Virus record (IMG/VR): IMGVR_UViG_2585427787_000010
Length of the DNA: 10,693 nucleotides
DNA from: a virus
Taxonomy: Duplodnaviria; Heunggongvirae; Uroviricota; Caudoviricetes
Reading direction: 5' to 3' (one strand)
Below are positions 1 through 8,244 of the stretch, in pieces (within the stretch, counting starts at the first letter, position 1; every line of letters starts with the position of its first letter). The position numbers were made by a program, and so were the translations under genes. Below the pieces are notes generated by a model. The model was not told the origin of the DNA and ran no database searches. It saw only the letters and a program-made list of their open reading frames with translations.

Positions 1-1119
1 TCAAATAACCAACTTAACCCATTCCTGACCTCGAGTATCGTTATAGCGATCGGTGGTTGCCTGGACTTTATGCCCCAGTAATGTTTTTGTATCGACACCC
101 TGTGCCCGGTACAGCCGTTCTGACAGGGAACGTTGTTCATGAAATGTTGGTGGTGTTTTTCCTGCTGGTGGAATTATTCCAGCCAGGTCCCGTGCTTTGG
201 CAAAGTAATCGCTCAGGTTGTCTTTACTCATCGGCTTCGGTTGTTTCTGGTGCCGACTATGGATTAGATATGGACTTAATATTCTGTCTCGGCACCCATC
301 AATAACTTCTTTTAACGTTATCCCAATGGCATCACAGCGTAGTGTAAGCGGTAACGCCAGACGCATTCCGGTTTTTCCCTGGGTGATATGCAGGTGTTCG
401 TTCCACACATCTGAAAAACGCATGTGGCAAATGTCATCACGGCGCTGACCAGTAACAATCGCAAGAAGCATTGCGTTACGGATAAAGTGTTTTTCAGGCG
501 TTGCGTTGTAAATTTTTTGCCAGTCTTCCAGGGTGAGCCTGGCTCTGGTTACTTTAGGGATCGGTTTACGGGTAGCCTCCGGAGGATTCCATCCAGGAGG
601 AACTTCCCCTGCATGCTGTGCTTCTTTATAAATATCAACCCATAATCCACGATTTACTCTCGCTGTGCTGACCATGTCTTTATCCAGCCACTCATCCAGT
701 ATTAATGCAAAGTCTCTTACTTCCAGTTCTTTCAATGGGTGGTTTCCCAGACGGGAAACCAGGTATGCAGCCATTCGGGCTTTTTCTTTGTGAGTTGTAG
801 TTGCAATATCCCCATTTTTCAGTCGCGTGTCCTGTATTTTCAGATATCGATCAACCCATGCCTTTAATCTGATACCCCGACGTTTTGTTGCTGACGGACT
901 TTCATCAATTTTGCGCATGAAATATTCAGCTTCTGCTGCAGCTATTCGCTGATTGGCTGTGGAAGCGATTTTTTCTGCTTTGCCTTTGTCTGTTCCGAGA
1001 CCGTGAAATTTTCCAGTCACAGGGTTTTTATACTGGTAGTAAACCCTGCCAGTTCTGCGATCAAACTTTTCGTAAAGACCGGTTACGTCAGTGCTGTTTT
1101 TTCGTGGCCTCGGTGACAT
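1..1119 (-). CDS. int: Phage integrase, lambda-type tyrosine recombinase (372 aa)
   Basis: Complete ORF (ATG at 1119, stop at 1-3). C-terminus ...LLGHKVQATTDRYNDTRGQEWVKLVI resembles the lambda Int C-terminus carrying the tyrosine nucleophile. The 5' end is overlapped by an excisionase-like gene, the classic xis-int arrangement. AAGGAG lies about 10 nt upstream of the ATG. Confidence 0.9.
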   Translation of the reverse strand: MSPRPRKNSTDVTGLYEKFDRRTGRVYYQYKNPVTGKFHGLGTDKGKAEKIASTANQRIAAAEAEYFMRKIDESPSATKRRGIRLKAWVDRYLKIQDTRLKNGDIATTTHKEKARMAAYLVSRLGNHPLKELEVRDFALILDEWLDKDMVSTARVNRGLWVDIYKEAQHAGEVPPGWNPPEATRKPIPKVTRARLTLEDWQKIYNATPEKHFIRNAMLLAIVTGQRRDDICHMRFSDVWNEHLHITQGKTGMRLALPLTLRCDAIGITLKEVIDGCRDRILSPYLIHSRHQKQPKPMSKDNLSDYFAKARDLAGIIPPAGKTPPTFHEQRSLSERLYRAQGVDTKTLLGHKVQATTDRYNDTRGQEWVKLVI

Positions 1120-1418: not shown

Positions 1419-3890
1419 TTAAAAATCAGCCTGATTCGGAATCAGTTTTTGCCAGATAGCTGAAACGTATTTTGCCTGGTAACGGGCGTCATCAAGTGCA
1501 TTATGGCGCTCACCTTCGAATGGAATAGCCGTTCTGGCATCGAAGTCTATGGCTTTCCCCAGCTCAACGATTGTGCGTACATCGCGATCGTTGTAGTAAC
1601 GCCACGGGCAGGGGATCCCCTGCCGTTCGTATGAACGGCGCAAAATCGTGTTGTCGAAGTTGGCTCCATTTCCCCAGACCTGAACAAAAAATTCACCGGA
1701 GTTTTCGTCGATAAATTCCCGCAATTGTAACAGTGCATCATCTAACGGGATTTCATCGGTCATAATGGCAGATTGCGCTTCGCGTGATTGCTTAAGCCAC
1801 CATTTAATGGTGTCCCGATCAATGACTCCGCCAGCAGTTTCCAGATCGATAGTCTTACTAAATTCCGGTCCCATATCTCCGGTTTGCGGATCGAAAAATA
1901 TTGCACCTATTGAGATAATCGGGGCATCAGGATTTTTTCCCATGGTTTCAAGGTCGATCATTAGATGGTCACACGTCCTACTGGCGGATGTGATTTCGTG
2001 ATGACCGTTCACCTTAATTGAGTGATCTGCCGTCTCGCCAGTTTCATTATCGCTATTGTGATGCTGATTGCCGCCAGTGTTCTTCTTGTTTGGATGTTCA
2101 GCGCCTTCCATTTCCTCCGGATCATCTTCCTGAACTTCAACCTGATACTCTTCATCGAATGTTTCCTGGTATGTTGCGTCGCCCATCACCGCGCCACAAT
2201 CAGGGCAGTTGCCGCCGCCGGTCTGACCGCAGGCGGTGCAGATCTTTTCCGGTTCCTGTTGCACTACTGGTTCAGGTTGTTTCGTTTCTGGCTCGTTTTG
2301 TTGCGTATTTGGGCTGTTTTGTTCCGCTTTCTGGTCGTTCTGTTCCGATTCTTGCTGGTTCTGGTTTACAGAATCGCGGGTTTCAATCCCCTTTACCCAT
2401 TTCGGATCATTCGGGTCGCTAATCCCTGCAACAAATTCTCCGCGAGAGGCAGCAAGCAACTTATCGGCGTCAGGCTGGCTGATATTGGCTGCCTGCATAA
2501 TTTTGTTTACTTCGTCAGCGGTAACTTTTACCGGCTCTGGTTGTGCGGTCGTGTCAGATGCACCAGTATTTTGTTGTGAACCTGAGTACGTGCCGTTTTT
2601 ACGTGCGAAGTATTCCTCTTTTGTGATTTCCGTAGCTCCCAAGGCTAGTGCTTTTTCCAGACCAGAAAGTTTGTTTGCGCGACCGTATTTTTCGCCATCC
2701 TTGTCGGTGAAGAGGAAGTAGAACGGCCCTTCACGCTCTACAGATGGTTCGACTTCCACTTTGCATTCGGTTTTTTCGTTGTCCGGAATTGCCGTTTCCA
2801 CTGCATCAGTTTCTGGTACTGGCGACGAGAGAGTATCAGTTGCGCTCTGATTTGTTCCTTCATCTTCAAACACGCCCTTTGTAGTCAGGTATTCAGTAAT
2901 GTATTTGTTCAGTGCCACAGGGTCTTTGTGAATGTCGATCGGACGTTCACGGACAAGGCCAAAAATAGTCTGGCGGTCGTAGCGAAGGGCATCAGGCTGT
3001 TTGCGCATTGATGCCGAGATACGCTTCCAGTCTTCGCGGTCGTTGTCGATAACTTCATTTTTTGCCCAGCGATGAATGCTGCCGTCAATGTTTCCGGCAT
3101 CCACATCACCAGGCCAGAGAGCGTAGGCCAGTTCGTCATCCAGTGTTTTCCATGTCTGCTTGTATTCGCGATGAGTGGCAGCAATGACCGGGCTGATTTT
3201 TCCTGTTGAACTTTCAGTGTTCTGTTGATTGGCTCTGGCGCGGGCGAGATCAACAACAGACGTGTATTTTCCGGTTCCCTTGCGTTCACCTTCGCGACGT
3301 TTTTTCCAGATGCGCATCTCTGCCTGAATTTCGGGCCATTTAGCTCCAGGCTTACATTTATGCTTAACCCACCCGATGGCATGCAACTTAAGTTCCGGAT
3401 ACATGGCGTTAACTTCTGGCATTTTCATCAACGCTTCAACGATATATCCGTCGAATGTTGCCATGTCTTCCTGCAACAGTTCCTGTGCACTAATCACCAT
3501 ATCAACGGTGATGTTTTCACATGTGTCGAACTTAACCATGACAGCGTTCTGTACTTCAGGGGCCAGCTTGTCAAAAGTGACGTTCATCGGATTTGATTCA
3601 GTCTCAACCGGGACAAAGGAAGCTGACTCCTCATCCCAGCGGTTTTCCCGCATATATTCAGCATCCCAGGAATCGAGGGCAGGGCGGGGTATACCGGGTT
3701 TATCCTCGCAGACAAGAAATTTATAAGCGCAGTCCTGAGCAGCCGGATATTGCTCCAGGAATTGCCAGGTAAATTTGGCACGGGCGCGGCGTTCGTCACC
3801 GGCTTCAATGGCAGTGGCTACAGCAACTGCACCTTCTTCCTTTATTGCCTGTTCGTCCGGAATGGCGGCGCAAATAAAGACTTTACTCAT
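1419..3890 (-). CDS. Large prophage exonuclease (823 aa): RecE (exonuclease VIII)-like N-terminal/central region, Q/E/P-rich linker with a Cys4 cluster, and C-terminal DnaQ-like DEDDh 3'-5' exonuclease domain
   Basis: Long uninterrupted ORF with ATG at 3890. C-terminal ~190 aa carry DEDDh motifs: Exo I MIDLETMG, Exo II GNGANFDNTIL, Exo III HNALDDARYQAKY. Central CTACGQTGGGNCPDCG has CxxC...CxxC spacing. Position beside xis/int matches a lambdoid recombination module. The RecE-like assignment of the N-terminal part is from memory and tentative. Confidence 0.8.
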   Translation of the reverse strand: MSKVFICAAIPDEQAIKEEGAVAVATAIEAGDERRARAKFTWQFLEQYPAAQDCAYKFLVCEDKPGIPRPALDSWDAEYMRENRWDEESASFVPVETESNPMNVTFDKLAPEVQNAVMVKFDTCENITVDMVISAQELLQEDMATFDGYIVEALMKMPEVNAMYPELKLHAIGWVKHKCKPGAKWPEIQAEMRIWKKRREGERKGTGKYTSVVDLARARANQQNTESSTGKISPVIAATHREYKQTWKTLDDELAYALWPGDVDAGNIDGSIHRWAKNEVIDNDREDWKRISASMRKQPDALRYDRQTIFGLVRERPIDIHKDPVALNKYITEYLTTKGVFEDEGTNQSATDTLSSPVPETDAVETAIPDNEKTECKVEVEPSVEREGPFYFLFTDKDGEKYGRANKLSGLEKALALGATEITKEEYFARKNGTYSGSQQNTGASDTTAQPEPVKVTADEVNKIMQAANISQPDADKLLAASRGEFVAGISDPNDPKWVKGIETRDSVNQNQQESEQNDQKAEQNSPNTQQNEPETKQPEPVVQQEPEKICTACGQTGGGNCPDCGAVMGDATYQETFDEEYQVEVQEDDPEEMEGAEHPNKKNTGGNQHHNSDNETGETADHSIKVNGHHEITSASRTCDHLMIDLETMGKNPDAPIISIGAIFFDPQTGDMGPEFSKTIDLETAGGVIDRDTIKWWLKQSREAQSAIMTDEIPLDDALLQLREFIDENSGEFFVQVWGNGANFDNTILRRSYERQGIPCPWRYYNDRDVRTIVELGKAIDFDARTAIPFEGERHNALDDARYQAKYVSAIWQKLIPNQADF

Positions 3891-4409: not shown

Positions 4410-4467
4410 AAAAAGGGCGGCAGACCAGTCACGGAGTAAAACTGATACCGCCAAACGTCACCAGAAA
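4410..4467 (-). ncRNA. dicF: DicF-like small regulatory RNA (prophage sRNA that targets ftsZ mRNA in E. coli)
   Basis: Minus-strand sequence UUUUCUGGUGACGUUUGGCGGUAUCAGUUUUACUCCGUGACUGGUCUGCCGCCCUUUUU matches E. coli DicF as I recall it, with about one difference. It ends in a GC-rich hairpin (GGCGG...CCGCC) followed by U5, an intrinsic terminator. It sits in an ORF-free region of the leftward operon. Confidence 0.75.
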
Positions 4468-4801
4468 ATTGATAACAGAGGGCGTTGCAGCGGGGTTGTC
4501 ACTTAAGCGTATGGTCAACCTGACAACCCGGTGTCCTCAAGGGGGAAGAAATACCCCCGCCATACTTACCGCCGCGCCATTTCGCGGAGTGCCACAACCG
4601 GAAGCGCACGGTCGACGAAAATTTAACGACAGGCTATCTATGAACCAGCTACCTCGCCGTGCGCTTTCGCGTTATGGTCTGACTTTTCAGGGAAATATCC
4701 TTTCAGTAAACTGTCAGTGCCGGATGCTCACCCGTGTCCGGCGCACGCACTCCACCTCACCCGTGGAGAACTCCTTAATCACCAACCCTCAGGAGGGTGA
4801 A

Positions 4802-5077
4802 ATGTCGACTGAAAATGATGAAATCATTAACTCCCTGATACGCCAGATTAATAATTTTGATAAAGCATTGCAGCATGCTGCGGCGCGTAGTGATATAACT
4901 CTTTTAGCAATTTCATTTCTTGCATCTGTAATGGATAAAAATGAAGTCGTACGACAGAGTCTTGTTGATTATATCGACTCGCTTCAACCAGGCACTTTCA
5001 ATCATGAGAGCTTCAATCATGAGAAAGAGCATGTTAAATCTGTAATTAATTCTCTTGTTTTGAATCAAAAGAATTAA
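4802..5077 (+). CDS. Hypothetical small protein (91 aa), antisense-oriented moron inside the leftward early operon
   Basis: Strong SD AGGAGGGTGAA immediately before the ATG at 4802; AT-rich coding sequence; predicted intrinsic terminator about 25 nt after the stop. The upstream in-frame extension (4469-4801) is GC-rich and Arg/Pro-rich and looks non-coding. The protein is helical with an FNHESFNHE repeat and no recognisable family. Confidence 0.6.
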   Translation: MSTENDEIINSLIRQINNFDKALQHAAARSDITLLAISFLASVMDKNEVVRQSLVDYIDSLQPGTFNHESFNHEKEHVKSVINSLVLNQKN

Positions 5078-5397: not shown

Positions 5398-5616
5398 TTA
5401 ACGCGGGCATGTAATCATTCTGGCAATGCTTAATGCCGCTGCTTTTTCCAGCCTGGTGATATCCTGCTCCAGAGCGGACAGATTTTCAGCCTGCTTAGCC
5501 TTGGCTTCATTGGCCCATTTCAGATCCTGCGCTGCATTAATTTTCTGGCGCATCCACTCATAAAGTTCATCATCGGTATAGTCTGGCGCGATGATGACGG
5601 GTTCTCGTTTCTGCAT
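5398..5616 (-). CDS. Small early-operon protein (72 aa), YdfA/YdaF-like (DUF1391-type), first gene after the PL-like promoter
   Basis: ATG at 5616 preceded by GAGGAA; motif ...YEWMRQKINAAQDLKWANEAKAKQAENLSALEQDI... resembles the small Rac/Qin early proteins as I recall them. Position is directly downstream of the repressor, as for ydfA in Qin. Confidence 0.6.
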   Translation of the reverse strand: MQKREPVIIAPDYTDDELYEWMRQKINAAQDLKWANEAKAKQAENLSALEQDITRLEKAAALSIARMITCPR

Positions 5617-5812
5617 ACTGATTCCTCGCGGTGCTGTTTCCCCTTAACGCCGGGGTAGCGGAACAAAAACCTGCTGCATAGTTATTAAAGTTGAACCCTG
5701 CCGTCATGTTCTTACGCCTCGGGCTGGCTACTTAACCCCTGACCACTGCCTGGTAACTCGAAGTATTGCCCTGCATTCTGTGGGGCGGGGTGGGTTGGTA
5801 TGAAAAGAAGGA

Positions 5813-5849
5813 TACCCATAGGTATTTAAAAAGTAAATACCTATGGGTA
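5813..5849. promoter_or_regulatory. Perfect 16-bp inverted repeat with 5-bp spacer, containing two TACC-N4-GGTA dyads; candidate OL-type operator and/or terminator of the repressor transcript
   Basis: tacccataggtattta-aaaag-taaatacctatgggta is directly readable. It lies between the repressor stop (5892) and the leftward early genes, with T-rich flanks on both strands. The same TACC-N4-GGTA motif recurs in the repressor/cro divergent region. Confidence 0.55.
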
Positions 5850-5891
5850 AATTTTTGCGGTGTCTTAACTGGTGACTAGTTGTTTGGTGAG

Positions 5892-6311
5892 CTATGATGC
5901 GTTTTGTGCTTTCTTTTTACGGATTTCTTCGTAGATCATATTGTAATACTGTTTTTTCTCTTCAAGAGTTTTTAATAATTTATCCGCTTCACTTTCTGGC
6001 AGTTCGTCTAAGAGATCTAAAAAAATACGTTGTCGTGGCGTTAGAACCCTTGTTTCATAACTGGAGGCTGTGTTCGTTGATGATGAAACGATACCATCCA
6101 TCCATCCCCGGGGTAACCCAAAGGACTCTTCGATAATCTCCACCATATCATCAGCGATCCGTTTTTTTCCCTTTTTCCCCTCTGGGTACAACATTCTTGA
6201 TACATAAGAAGGCTCGCGCCCGATCTTTCTGGCCACGTTAACCGCTTTACCATCGCATTTCTCATCACGAATTTTGATGAGTTGCTGTCGTCTAAATTCA
6301 TATTTGTCCAT
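5892..6311 (-). CDS. Prophage immunity repressor, DicA/RacR-like HTH protein (139 aa), without a peptidase S24 domain
   Basis: HTH-like segment NVARKIGREPSYVSRML; C-terminal LTPRQRIFLDLLDELPESEADKLLKTL resembles the DicA C-terminus (..LELLELFNALPESEQD..) as recalled; divergent from a Cro-like gene. No Ala-Gly / Ser...Lys LexA-type cleavage motifs are apparent. Confidence 0.8.
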   Translation of the reverse strand: MDKYEFRRQQLIKIRDEKCDGKAVNVARKIGREPSYVSRMLYPEGKKGKKRIADDMVEIIEESFGLPRGWMDGIVSSSTNTASSYETRVLTPRQRIFLDLLDELPESEADKLLKTLEEKKQYYNMIYEEIRKKKAQNAS

Positions 6312-6411
6312 AGGTAAATAATAGATGCGATTACCGCAAGGTAAACAACCTGTGGGTATTGACTTTTGTTTACCTGTGGGTATTCTTTGCTGTGTTTACT
6401 AAGGAGTAGCT
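6312..6411. promoter_or_regulatory. Divergent promoter/operator region between the repressor and the cro-like gene
   Basis: Direct repeats acctgtgggtatt at 6348-6360 and 6372-6384, each a TACC-N4-GGTA-type dyad. Inverted repeat aggtaaacaa (6339-6348) / ttgtttacct (6366-6375). Candidate sigma70 elements TTGACT (6359-6364) and TATTCT (6381-6386) overlap the repeats. AAGGAG SD at 6401-6406 precedes the ATG at 6412. Confidence 0.6.
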
Positions 6412-6693
6412 ATGGAAGAATTAAGAATATTTCTCAATTCTCTTTCGTCAGATGAACAGCGTATGTTTGCATGCGAGTGTGGTACCAGCATCGGTTATCT
6501 AAGAAAGGCATTGAGTAAAGGTCAAGTGTTAGGGGCATCGTTATGTGTCCTTATTGAGCGAGCCAGTAATGGTGAAGTTACACGTCAGCAACTAAGGCCT
6601 TTTGATTGGATGAATATTTGGCCCGAGCTGGAAGATACCAAAACGTTAACACAACCACTTTCTAGGAGCTTGATTCATGAAAATCAAGCATGA
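6412..6693 (+). CDS. Cro-like HTH regulator of the DicC/YdaS family (93 aa)
   Basis: Divergent from the repressor; motif ...ASLCVLIERASNGEVTRQQLRPFDW parallels YdaS ..ERCPAIERATRGEVLCEELRPD.. as recalled; good SD. Confidence 0.75.
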   Translation: MEELRIFLNSLSSDEQRMFACECGTSIGYLRKALSKGQVLGASLCVLIERASNGEVTRQQLRPFDWMNIWPELEDTKTLTQPLSRSLIHENQA

Positions 6694-7102
6694 ACACATC
6701 CGCATGGCGATGAATGTCTGGGCGCATCCGGACGGCGAAAAAGTGCCGGCTGCGAAAATTACCAAAGCGTATTTCGAGCTGGGAATGACGTTCCCGGAAC
6801 TGTATGACGACAGCCATCCGGAAGCCCTGGCTCGCAATACTCAGAAAATTTTCCGCTGGGTGGAGAAAGACACCCCTGATGCGGTTAAAAAAATTCAGGC
6901 GTTGTTACCAGCTATCGAAAAAGCAATGCCACCTCTGCTGGTGGCCCGAATGCGCAGTCATAGCTCAGCCTATTTTCGGGAACTAGTGGAGACGCGGGAA
7001 CGACTGGTGAGAGACGCTGATGATTTTGTCGCAGTGGCGATCGCTGGTTTCAACCAGATGAATCGTGGTGGCCCTGCAGGAAATATTGTGGCTGTGCATT
7101 GA
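6677..7102 (+). CDS. YdaT-like protein (141 aa), CII-analog regulator historically annotated as a toxin
   Basis: Begins MKIKHEHI... and ends ...VAVH, with a size typical of Rac YdaT; overlaps the upstream YdaS-like gene by 17 nt, indicating coupling. Confidence 0.7.
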   Translation: MKIKHEHIRMAMNVWAHPDGEKVPAAKITKAYFELGMTFPELYDDSHPEALARNTQKIFRWVEKDTPDAVKKIQALLPAIEKAMPPLLVARMRSHSSAYFRELVETRERLVRDADDFVAVAIAGFNQMNRGGPAGNIVAVH

Positions 7103-7173
7103 CTCGCAATATTCATACCGGATCACTTCCGGCAATTTGTGAGTAAAAAGATTCGGTATCAAAAGAGGTGAGT

Positions 7174-8244
7174 ATGGCTAACGCCTGGCTCAGATTATGG
7201 CATGACATGCCAAATGACCCTAAGTGGCGAACAATTGCCAGGGTGTCAGGGCAGCCAATTGCAACAGTGATGGCAGTGTATATCCACCTCCTGGTGAGCG
7301 CGTCACGAAATGTCACGCGAGGTCACATTGATGTCACGACAGAAGATTTGGCAAGTGCGCTCGACGTGACAGAAGAGGTAATTGATTCAATTTTGCAGAC
7401 GATGCAGGGGCGGGTACTTGATGGTGATTTAATCACTGGATGGGAAAAACGCCAGGTGCTTAAAGAGGACAACGGCAATATTTCGCAAACCGCAAAATCT
7501 CCTGCAGAGCGCAAGAGGGCGCAGCGAGAGAGGGAAAGAAAGCGGGAACAAAATGGCGATTGTCACGGCGCGTCACGAAATGTCACGCACATGTCACGAC
7601 GAGTCACGACAGATAAAGATACAGATAAAGATACAGATCAAGAAGATCAAAACACTATGGTCCATGGCGTAAAAAACGCCACGAACCAGGCAGGGGATGT
7701 TCAGACCGTCAATCCTGGTCAGCCAGCAGGCACGACACCGGAAGCCGATTCAGCGTATGCGCTGAAAGCCGATTCGGGCGCTGTGCAGCAGGTGATGACC
7801 GCAAGGCCGGAGCAATCACACCAACTGCAGCAGCCTGAAGCCGATTCCGCCATTCAGCGGGAAGCCGATCGGGTAGTCCCGGAAAACACCGGGCAGCCTG
7901 TGAGACGAGTGGATTATCCGGATGTGTTCGAACAGGTCTGGCGGGAATACCCGTTGCGTGCTGGGGCAAACCCGAAGAAATCCGCTTTCAGTGCCTGGAA
8001 GGCCAGATTACGCGAGGGGGTGTCACCAGAGGCCATGCTGGATGGCGTGAGGCGTTACGCAAGATACCTTGCGGCTACCGGGAAAACGGGAACGGAATTT
8101 GTTCAGCGAGCGACGACGTTTTTTGGACCGGACCGGAATTTTGAAAACCCCTGGCTGCTCCCGGTAAGCGGCACGAACAACCAGCGTTGTGTGAATCATA
8201 TTTCTGAACCGGATACCGAAATTCCACCGGGCTTCAGGGGGTAA
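7174..8244 (+). CDS. Replication initiator / replisome organiser (lambda O-like role; YdaU/DUF1376-like), about 356 aa from ATG 7174
   Basis: SD AGAGG 5 nt before the ATG at 7174 (the ORF track starts at a GTG at 7168). N-terminus ANAWLRLWHDMPNDPKWRTIA is typical of phage replication organisers. The gene contains two clusters of GTCACG iterons plus an AT-rich repeat, as lambda ori sits inside O. It follows the immunity region. Confidence 0.75.
   Translation: MANAWLRLWHDMPNDPKWRTIARVSGQPIATVMAVYIHLLVSASRNVTRGHIDVTTEDLASALDVTEEVIDSILQTMQGRVLDGDLITGWEKRQVLKEDNGNISQTAKSPAERKRAQRERERKREQNGDCHGASRNVTHMSRRVTTDKDTDKDTDQEDQNTMVHGVKNATNQAGDVQTVNPGQPAGTTPEADSAYALKADSGAVQQVMTARPEQSHQLQQPEADSAIQREADRVVPENTGQPVRRVDYPDVFEQVWREYPLRAGANPKKSAFSAWKARLREGVSPEAMLDGVRRYARYLAATGKTGTEFVQRATTFFGPDRNFENPWLLPVSGTNNQRCVNHISEPDTEIPPGFRG
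7298..7342. repeat. Iteron cluster 1: four GTCAC(G/A) repeats at about 10-11 bp spacing, inside the replication gene
   Basis: GTCACG at 7302, 7312 and 7333, with a GTCACA variant at 7322; the first 21 bp (gcgcgtcacgaaatgtcacgc) are identical to the start of cluster 2. Confidence 0.7.
7561..7650. repeat. Iteron cluster 2 (five GTCACG repeats) followed by an AT-rich tandem repeat (gataaagataca x2); candidate origin of replication
   Basis: GTCACG at 7562, 7572, 7582, 7593 and 7604, spaced about one helical turn apart; immediately followed by agataaagatacagataaagatacagatcaagaagatcaa (7611-7650). Confidence 0.7.

Follow-up and report, generated by a model that had tools for sequence, protein, structure and literature searches.

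The 10,693-nucleotide stretch of DNA analyzed here (IMG/VR virus record IMGVR_UViG_2585427787_000010), in the following termed the window, comprises the left arm and immunity region of an Escherichia coli lambdoid prophage. In this region lies a leftward open reading frame (ORF) for a repressor of 139 amino acids (aa), annotated as a "hypothetical protein", which is flanked on both sides by copies of a 12-bp dyad, TACC-N4-GGTA, and is divergent from a gene for a Cro-like regulator. An earlier note on this DNA had counted four such dyads, two within a perfect palindrome at 5813–5849 and two as direct repeats at 6347–6358 and 6371–6382, and had proposed that they form a set of left operators (OL) and right operators (OR) defining the immunity specificity of this prophage. 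The features of the region, including the leftward promoter PL, the rightward promoter PR and the repressor promoter PRM, are as follows:

5892–6311, minus strand: ORF of the 139-aa repressor
5813–5849, no strand assigned: perfect palindrome with 16-bp arms and a 5-nt loop, made up of putative OL1, putative OL2 and their A/T flanks
5813–5824, minus strand: putative OL1, TACCTATGGGTA, the promoter-proximal dyad; its last two bases begin the PL −10, an arrangement found in 22 loci
5838–5849, minus strand: putative OL2, TACCCATAGGTA, the distal dyad; the PL −35 follows directly
5809–5837, minus strand: inferred PL, −35 TTTACT (5837–5832), 17-nt spacer, −10 TATCCT (5814–5809), read from the sequence
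6305–6316, minus strand: candidate weak fourth right-hand site, TACCTATGGACA, 10 of 12 positions, over the PRM start and the repressor ATG
6318–6345, minus strand: PRM-like promoter, TTTACC (6345–6340), 16-nt spacer, TATTAT (6323–6318), from a promoter scanner
6332–6343, no strand assigned: putative OR3, dyad TACCGCAAGGTA, covering the −35 and spacer of PRM; the center departs from YRYR
6347–6358, no strand assigned: putative OR2, AACCTGTGGGTA, abutting the PR −35
6359–6386, plus strand: PR-like promoter, TTGACT (6359–6364), 16-nt spacer, TATTCT (6381–6386), from a promoter scanner
6371–6382, no strand assigned: putative OR1, TACCTGTGGGTA, extending over the PR spacer into the −10
6412–6693, plus strand: Cro-like regulator of YdaS type, 93 aa, co-conserved with the operators and expected to share them

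A search for the motif across the window, as the earlier note had suggested, returned four exact copies of TACCNNNNGGTA (TACC-N4-GGTA), at 5813, 5838, 6332 and 6371, against an expectation of 0.06, and none of 200 shuffles reached this number. All four lie inside 570 bp around the repressor ORF, and when up to two mismatches to TACCTRTGGGTA are tolerated, the seven matches (0.73 expected) all fall in the repressor-gene region as well. The count of four stands, albeit with a different membership: the site at 6347–6358 (AACC...GGTA) is one mismatch away from the dyad, and the exact copy at 6332–6343 had been overlooked. The palindrome is as perfect as had been described, with arms at 5813–5828 and 5834–5849 that are 100% complementary and carry one dyad each. 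On the right, a perfect 13-nt direct repeat, ACCTGTGGGTATT, is indeed present at 6348–6360 and 6372–6384, although its left copy holds no exact dyad. A degenerate fifth copy on the minus strand, the candidate fourth right-hand site at 6305–6316, was seen only in the E. coli lineage and is absent in distant relatives.

The dyads are not peculiar to this prophage: homologues of the N-terminal domain of the repressor are accompanied by the same dyads at 23 loci, fetched from contigs representing one genome per species, and in phage mEp043. These loci stem from Yersinia, Arsenophonus, Edwardsiella, Klebsiella, Brenneria, Pantoea, Leclercia, Atlantibacter, Aeromonas, Izhakiella and Orbus as well as from two Betaproteobacteria, Ferrovum and a metagenome-assembled genome (MAG) of the Hydrogenophilaceae. 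Taken together with mEp043 and the window they amount to 195.5 kb, in which 86 exact dyads occur where about 3 are expected, nearly all of them at conserved positions. In most loci, dyads are situated at −72/−73, −47/−48 and −32/−33 from the repressor ATG, the −47/−48 site usually ending in GGTT, and a further pair, 25–26 bp apart, lies downstream of the repressor gene; the dyads of the window, at −71, −47 and −32 plus the downstream pair, fit this family layout exactly. While TACC and GGTA are kept, the four central bases vary between loci and between sites with a bias toward YRYR; the full operator site is roughly WW-TACC-YRYR-GGTA-WW. Within E. coli, most differences likewise fall into dyad centers or spacers, as judged from 80 IMG/VR loci whose repressors are 99–100% identical to that of the window and from four chromosomal variants. 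Fixed outer bases around a variable center are the pattern expected of a dyad contacted by a protein; as the site matrix was built from sites chosen by pattern, the invariance of ACC/GGT is partly circular, and the independent evidence is the positional recurrence.

Two groups of relatives stand out on their own account. Three loci, L019 (Ferrovum myxofaciens), L021 (the Hydrogenophilaceae MAG) and L022 (Aeromonas), carry the repressor domain, the Cro and the dyad layout outside the Enterobacterales, which by these sequence features appears to be an unusually broad host range for one immunity specificity. The Klebsiella loci L005, L007 and L009–L011 combine an S24-type repressor with the −73/−33 dyads and the downstream pair, lacking both the −48 site and a YdaS-like cro; in L009 (Klebsiella grimontii) the repressor abuts a 1,179-aa ORF that is too large for Cro. 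These look like an element of different organization.

The promoters keep a fixed position relative to the dyads. Across the family a −35-like hexamer (three to six of six positions as in TTGACA) directly follows the distal dyad, and after a spacer of 16–18 nt a second hexamer shares its first two bases with the end of the proximal dyad, at PL in 22 loci and at PR in 14; this second hexamer reads TAnnnT in all but one case (PL of L010, TTTTCT). In the 100-bp intergenic region of the window, the three dyads at 6332, 6347 and 6371 overlap or abut the hexamers of PR and PRM. Of the overlaps with PR elements that had been claimed, that of 6371–6382 with the −10 holds and amounts to two bases, but 6347–6358 abuts the −35 without overlapping it. 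On the repressor side, the PRM −10 ends six bases before the ATG, which places the predicted +1 at the A of this ATG at 6311 and predicts a leaderless repressor mRNA; in 22 of 24 relative loci, the −10 is found at a distance of 5–7 nt upstream of the ATG. The center of OR2 is located 41.5 bp upstream of the predicted PRM start, and its outer-base deviation (GGTT in repressor orientation) is conserved in 16 loci, while OR3 is equivalent to the conserved −32/−33 site of the relatives.

The downstream pair shows the same geometry: OL2 and OL1 are arranged like OR2 and OR1, the dyad-to-hexamer geometry of PL equals that of PR, and this is conserved in 22 loci. The dyad spacing of 25 bp matches the relatives, OL1 is contained in the PL spacer, and transcription would start near 5801–5802. 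Because the promoter hexamers keep fixed positions relative to the dyads, the palindrome can be assigned, on sequence grounds, to OL1 and OL2 over a leftward PL that would feed ydfC-dicF-dicB; transcription from PL would cross a leader of about 185 nt before it enters ydfC and then dicF and the kil/dicB-like gene. Only 42 bp separate OL from the stop codon of the repressor, and the distance between OL and OR is about 0.53 kb. The gene context was judged by the closer whole-window match (H35), since the E. coli record H1, used for annotation, diverges from the window left of 5700. The genes on either side are:

5398–5616, minus strand: ydfC
4415–4466, minus strand: DicF RNA, full-length, 74 bits
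4014–4247, minus strand: Kil/DicB-type division inhibitor (septation-inhibitor ORF)
1419–3890, minus strand: 823-aa exonuclease
1–1119, minus strand: integrase
6677–7102, plus strand: YdaT-type cII-like gene
7168–8244, plus strand: replication initiator

From these data we conclude, with a probability of roughly 85%, that the dyads serve as operators in an immunity switch of the lambdoid type and are read by the 139-aa repressor. The OL-like and OR-like set postulated earlier is strongly supported by the recurrence of the same offsets at the 23 loci and in mEp043, with the correction that the right side has three sites and not two; the attribution of the specificity to this prophage proved too narrow, as the half-sites and the predicted recognition segment are common to a wide family.

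The protein that would read these sites is composed of two parts of different relationship, the first containing a helix-turn-helix (HTH):

Residues 1–73: HTH DNA-binding domain
Residues 74–91: disordered linker
Residues 92–138: helical DicA-like C-terminal segment

The repressor matches a PHROG "transcriptional regulator" family and has no match in Pfam, not even to PF00717 (Peptidase_S24), so that the C-terminal S24 autoproteolysis domain is absent. In the homology search, residues 1–73 are 65–82% identical to the N-termini of many Peptidase_S24 proteins of 221–242 aa, which are LexA/CI-type repressors of Salmonella, Klebsiella, Pantoea, Edwardsiella, Leclercia and Yersinia. Residues 86–136, on the other hand, correspond to the C-terminal end of DicA: in NCBIfam, the DicA model is hit at its C-terminal segment only (model positions 81–131, E = 1.9e-5, below the full-length cut-off), and BLASTP aligns residues 84–129 of K-12 DicA with E = 2e-7. 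No alignment with DicA extends beyond the C-terminus; a DicA-type N-terminus (HTH_3/Xre sequence family) is lacking, and the N-terminal domain resembles Xre-type HTH domains at the level of the fold only. In the AlphaFold model, which has a mean predicted confidence (pLDDT) of 84.5 and values of 90–94 over residues 1–70, four N-terminal helices with the HTH at 23–30 and 34–40 are followed by a disordered linker (77–87) and a C-terminal helical hairpin. The best structural match is Rep of Salmonella phage SPC32H (5d50), followed by Xre-type/C-protein HTH domains and lambda repressor, whereas a sequence search of the PDB returned nothing significant (best E-value 0.08, to Z-alpha domains). With its 139 aa, its lack of S24 and its DicA-like helical C-terminal segment, the protein corresponds to the short non-cleavable repressors of the DicA/Gifsy type. 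No antirepressor gene was identified in the 10.7-kb window, to which the search was confined. As an observation in its own right, the N-terminal DNA-binding domain has no Pfam model and is yet widespread; its fusion partner is Peptidase_S24 in some proteins and a DicA-like tail in others (window; loci L002–L025), to judge from which the family appears to be a clean case of C-terminal domains being swapped while the operator specificity stays the same.

Several points weigh against assigning the dyads to this repressor. In 17 of 24 loci the dyads are conserved together with the YdaS-type Cro, so that part of the conservation signal could come from Cro; the PL hexamers of the window, TTTACT and TATCCT, are weak (8 of 12 positions) and fall under the threshold of the promoter scanner; OR2 and OR3 are only 15 bp apart from center to center, a spacing that differs from that in lambda and might render their occupancy mutually exclusive; the distance of 8 bp between the centers of TACC and GGTA leaves little room for an HTH dimer, unless the half-site includes the A/T flanks; and a literature search found no published binding data for the repressor or any homologue. 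The first of these points leads to the question whether the dyads might be recognized by the Cro-like protein alone, with the repressor binding another sequence, as the YdaS of prophage CP-933P is known to bind intergenic operators (PMC8630535). We consider this very improbable: in the five Klebsiella loci, Izhakiella and Orbus no YdaS-like Cro homologue is detectable, and all seven nevertheless retain dyads both upstream and downstream of the repressor, which argues that the dyads follow the N-terminal domain of the repressor and on which ground we rejected Cro as the sole reader. Moreover, the intergenic region contains no other repeated motif, and in CP-933P the footprints of the repressor PaaR2 and of YdaS overlap (PMC8630535), by analogy with which Cro probably shares the repressor's dyads in the window, too. 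That the repeats have arisen by chance, or are remnants of duplications devoid of regulatory function, has nothing to recommend it other than the general fact that chance can produce repeated short palindromic motifs. It is effectively refuted by the excess of exact dyads in the window and in the wider set and by the constancy of their positions in Enterobacterales, Aeromonas, Orbus and two Betaproteobacteria in spite of diverged centers and flanks.

A more serious competitor concerns the palindrome, which had also been proposed to end the repressor transcript: it might additionally, or instead, be a bidirectional intrinsic terminator that insulates the toxic dicF/dicB-kil operon from PRM read-through. 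As its sole function this is excluded by the recurrence of the same dyad in OR; as a second function we regard it as conceivable, if doubtful. A scanner calls a terminator at the palindrome on both strands, and the hairpin is stable indeed: on the repressor strand its RNA has a centroid energy of −22.5 kcal/mol (z = −5.9), and −21.7 kcal/mol compares with −9.9 ± 3.5 kcal/mol when centers and spacer are shuffled, none of 200 shuffles being as stable, so that it is stronger than two dyads alone would give. It is the only hairpin between the repressor stop codon (5892) and PL, and all 80 E. coli-type IMG/VR loci keep it at −17 kcal/mol or better. The perfect palindrome of the window is a minority form among them (about 12 of 80); the commonest E. 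coli variant, CATG/TATG, is a transition from it that yields a G·U pair on the repressor strand, and some variants alter both arms jointly (CATA/TATG in the window, CATG/CATG elsewhere). However, the tail, UCCUUCUUUU, has one U in its first three positions and thus a poor U-tract, and only 5 of the 16 stem pairs are G–C. PL already accounts for the upstream A-tract, as its own flank on that side, and for the downstream T-rich stretch, as its initial transcribed region, and both are conserved where there is no strong hairpin. Across the 22 loci, hairpin energies are typical of shuffled controls, and 46 of 88 positions in the dyad centers are pairable, as compared to 46.3 with permuted partners; this absence of covariation comes from a test of low power, as YRYR centers pair by chance about half the time. 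In the Yersinia locus L002 the two sites are even direct repeats, and outside the E. coli lineage the hairpin is not retained. The comparison points to the operator and promoter role as the conserved function of the palindrome and leaves termination as a possible, lineage-specific addition.

Starting from the observed motif statistics, positional conservation, promoter geometry and domain relationships, we infer how binding, the order of site occupancy, PRM activation and antirepressor control would interlock in such an operator switch. The repressor probably binds each dyad as a dimer via its predicted N-terminal HTH. Since OR1 and OR2 cover the spacer and −10 of PR and abut its −35, their occupancy would shut off the cro-like (ydaS-type) and cII-like (ydaT-type) genes, and OR2 could, from its position upstream of the leaderless start, stimulate PRM as lambda CI does at OR2. 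Binding to OR3 over the PRM −35 would allow negative autoregulation, to which the weak site over the ATG may add. On the left, occupancy of OL2 and OL1 would silence the ydfC-dicF-kil/dicB-exonuclease-xis-int operon; given that DicF and a Kil/DicB-type ORF belong to the operon of the putative PL, the OL sites would guard host-toxic functions, as in prophage Qin. The same sites probably serve the Cro-like protein as well. Because a DicA-like tail takes the place of the S24 protease domain, de-repression would require an antirepressor rather than RecA-stimulated self-cleavage.

The architecture is most readily understood by comparison with lambda, in which three operators cover PR and PRM between the divergent repressor and cro genes and the same operators are found again at the leftward PL; the lambda sites measure 17 bp, and OL and OR are 2.4 kb apart. 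The window shares with it the divergent repressor/cro pair, the three operators over PR and PRM and their repetition at PL, adjacent operators at a distance of 24–25 bp, a site about 42 bp upstream of PRM and, as predicted, a leaderless repressor mRNA. It differs from lambda in the 12-bp TACC-YRYR-GGTA core, in having only two clear OL sites, in the 15-bp distance of OR2 and OR3, in the short OL–OR distance of about 0.53 kb and in a repressor devoid of the S24 cleavage domain. Leaderless repressor mRNAs have been described for both lambda cI and PaaR2 (PMC8630535).

Phage mEp043 is the only named phage that carries the N-terminal domain of the repressor at more than 70% identity. Over residues 1–86 the identity amounts to 65%, and the segment REPSYVSRMLYPEGK-GKKRIADDM is identical apart from the residue denoted by the dash, which is G in the window and S in mEp043. 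Its Cro is of the YdaS type, too, and its dyads have the same offsets; the OL pair is flanked by cI and a small ORF on one side and by the annotated N gene on the other and hence lies where PL belongs. Unlike the window, mEp043 has a cI with Peptidase_S24, which is presumably SOS-cleavable, and a cII of the lambda type (PF05269) instead of the YdaT type. Judged from titles and abstracts, no operator analysis of mEp043 is apparent among the 10 listed of 14 papers that name this phage, and queries with the operator sequence, the motif and the protein accession found no relevant description in the searchable literature; the kind of switch is an ordinary one.

With respect to its leftward operon, the window compares with Qin, where the order is dicA-dicBp-ydfABC-dicF-dicB and DicA represses dicBp (PMC10448788); control by antirepressors has been described for DicA as well as for the Gifsy repressors (PMC10448788, PMC3121763). 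The order of repressor, promoter and ydfC-dicF-dicB corresponds to that of Qin, and the repressor resembles the DicA/Gifsy type in being short and non-cleavable and in its C-terminal ~46 aa, which are similar to DicA 84–129. The N-terminal DNA-binding domains, in contrast, are unrelated in sequence, for which reason the operators of the window should differ from those of DicA. In CP-933P of E. coli O157:H7, the cI analogue is divergent from ydaS(cro)-ydaT(cII), the repressor is leaderless, and OL-type sites are found at PL whose hexamers echo PR (PMC8630535), all of which is paralleled in the window. Its operator consensus, GTTTAGTAA (PMC8630535), differs from TACC-N4-GGTA, and we rejected the CP-933P operator specificity for the window on these grounds. 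There is also no paaA2-parE2 pair downstream of the window repressor; the interval between repressor and ydfC contains no annotated gene in the closest whole-window match. SPC32H Rep (PDB 5d50/5d4z), solved together with its antirepressor according to the title of the PDB entry, is likewise a phage repressor of small size whose HTH is N-terminal, but the relationship is limited to a Foldseek E of 8e-4, an identity of 16–22% and a large full-length rmsd (root-mean-square deviation), with no match at the level of sequence.

The OL-to-OR segment (5780–6420) is present with a coverage of at least 80% in 822 of 5,426 complete E. coli genomes (15%), among them ST131, O157:H7, O26 and O111 strains. 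The consensus WW-TACC-YRYR-GGTA-WW and the promoter map provide an operator definition for this immunity type, whose switch governs the cell-division inhibitors dicF and dicB-kil, and a DNA-binding domain for which Pfam has no model is now delineated in its fusions to an S24 protease or a DicA-like tail. These two fusion types make cross-immunity between inducible phages and cryptic prophages testable. As the architecture represents another lambda-type switch, the advance lies in annotation and specificity rather than in mechanism.

Beyond this, two further-reaching readings suggest themselves, which we put forward jointly as a tentative proposal. According to the first, the DNA-binding domain, the operators and Cro may constitute one widely shared immunity specificity across Enterobacterales, Aeromonas and Betaproteobacteria, within which the repressor may have received one of two exchangeable C-terminal domains, an SOS-cleavable S24 protease in some members and a non-cleavable DicA-like tail in others. 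If this were true, a resident prophage of the window type, as carried by the 15% of complete E. coli genomes mentioned above, would confer SOS-proof immunity against mEp043-like phages, and co-resident mEp043-like prophages could stay repressed even after their own CI has been cleaved. According to the second, the OL pair of E. coli may have been remodeled into a perfect palindrome, whose 37 bp would serve at once as the PL operators and promoter and as the terminator of the repressor transcript.

Some further observations concern the remainder of the region. A sharp mosaic junction is located at about 5617–5640: near-identity to K-12 Qin (L026) begins some 24 nt before the ydfC ATG, and the window upstream of this junction is unrelated to K-12 Qin. 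The window is missing ydfA and ydfB, both of which other E. coli variants of the module carry between OL and ydfC. Just 3' of the repressor stop codon, at 5879–5889, the window has about one copy of GGTTGTTT, a sequence that is tandemly expanded to about four copies in the interval between the repressor stop codon and OL of L030 (E. coli JNEC-KY180). Right beside DicF and on the opposite strand begins a TTG-initiated ORF of 202 aa (4469–5077, plus strand); as searches of Pfam and PHROG gave no match and the closest annotated genome has no clearly corresponding feature, it is probably not a gene. Finally, the recognition sequence published for YdaT, TTGATT-N6-AATCAA (PMC9986795), occurs exactly, as TTGATTCATGAAAATCAA, at 6670–6687, where it covers the start codon of the ydaT-like gene (6677) together with the 3' end of the cro-like gene, which suggests that the cII-like protein may bind at its own start.

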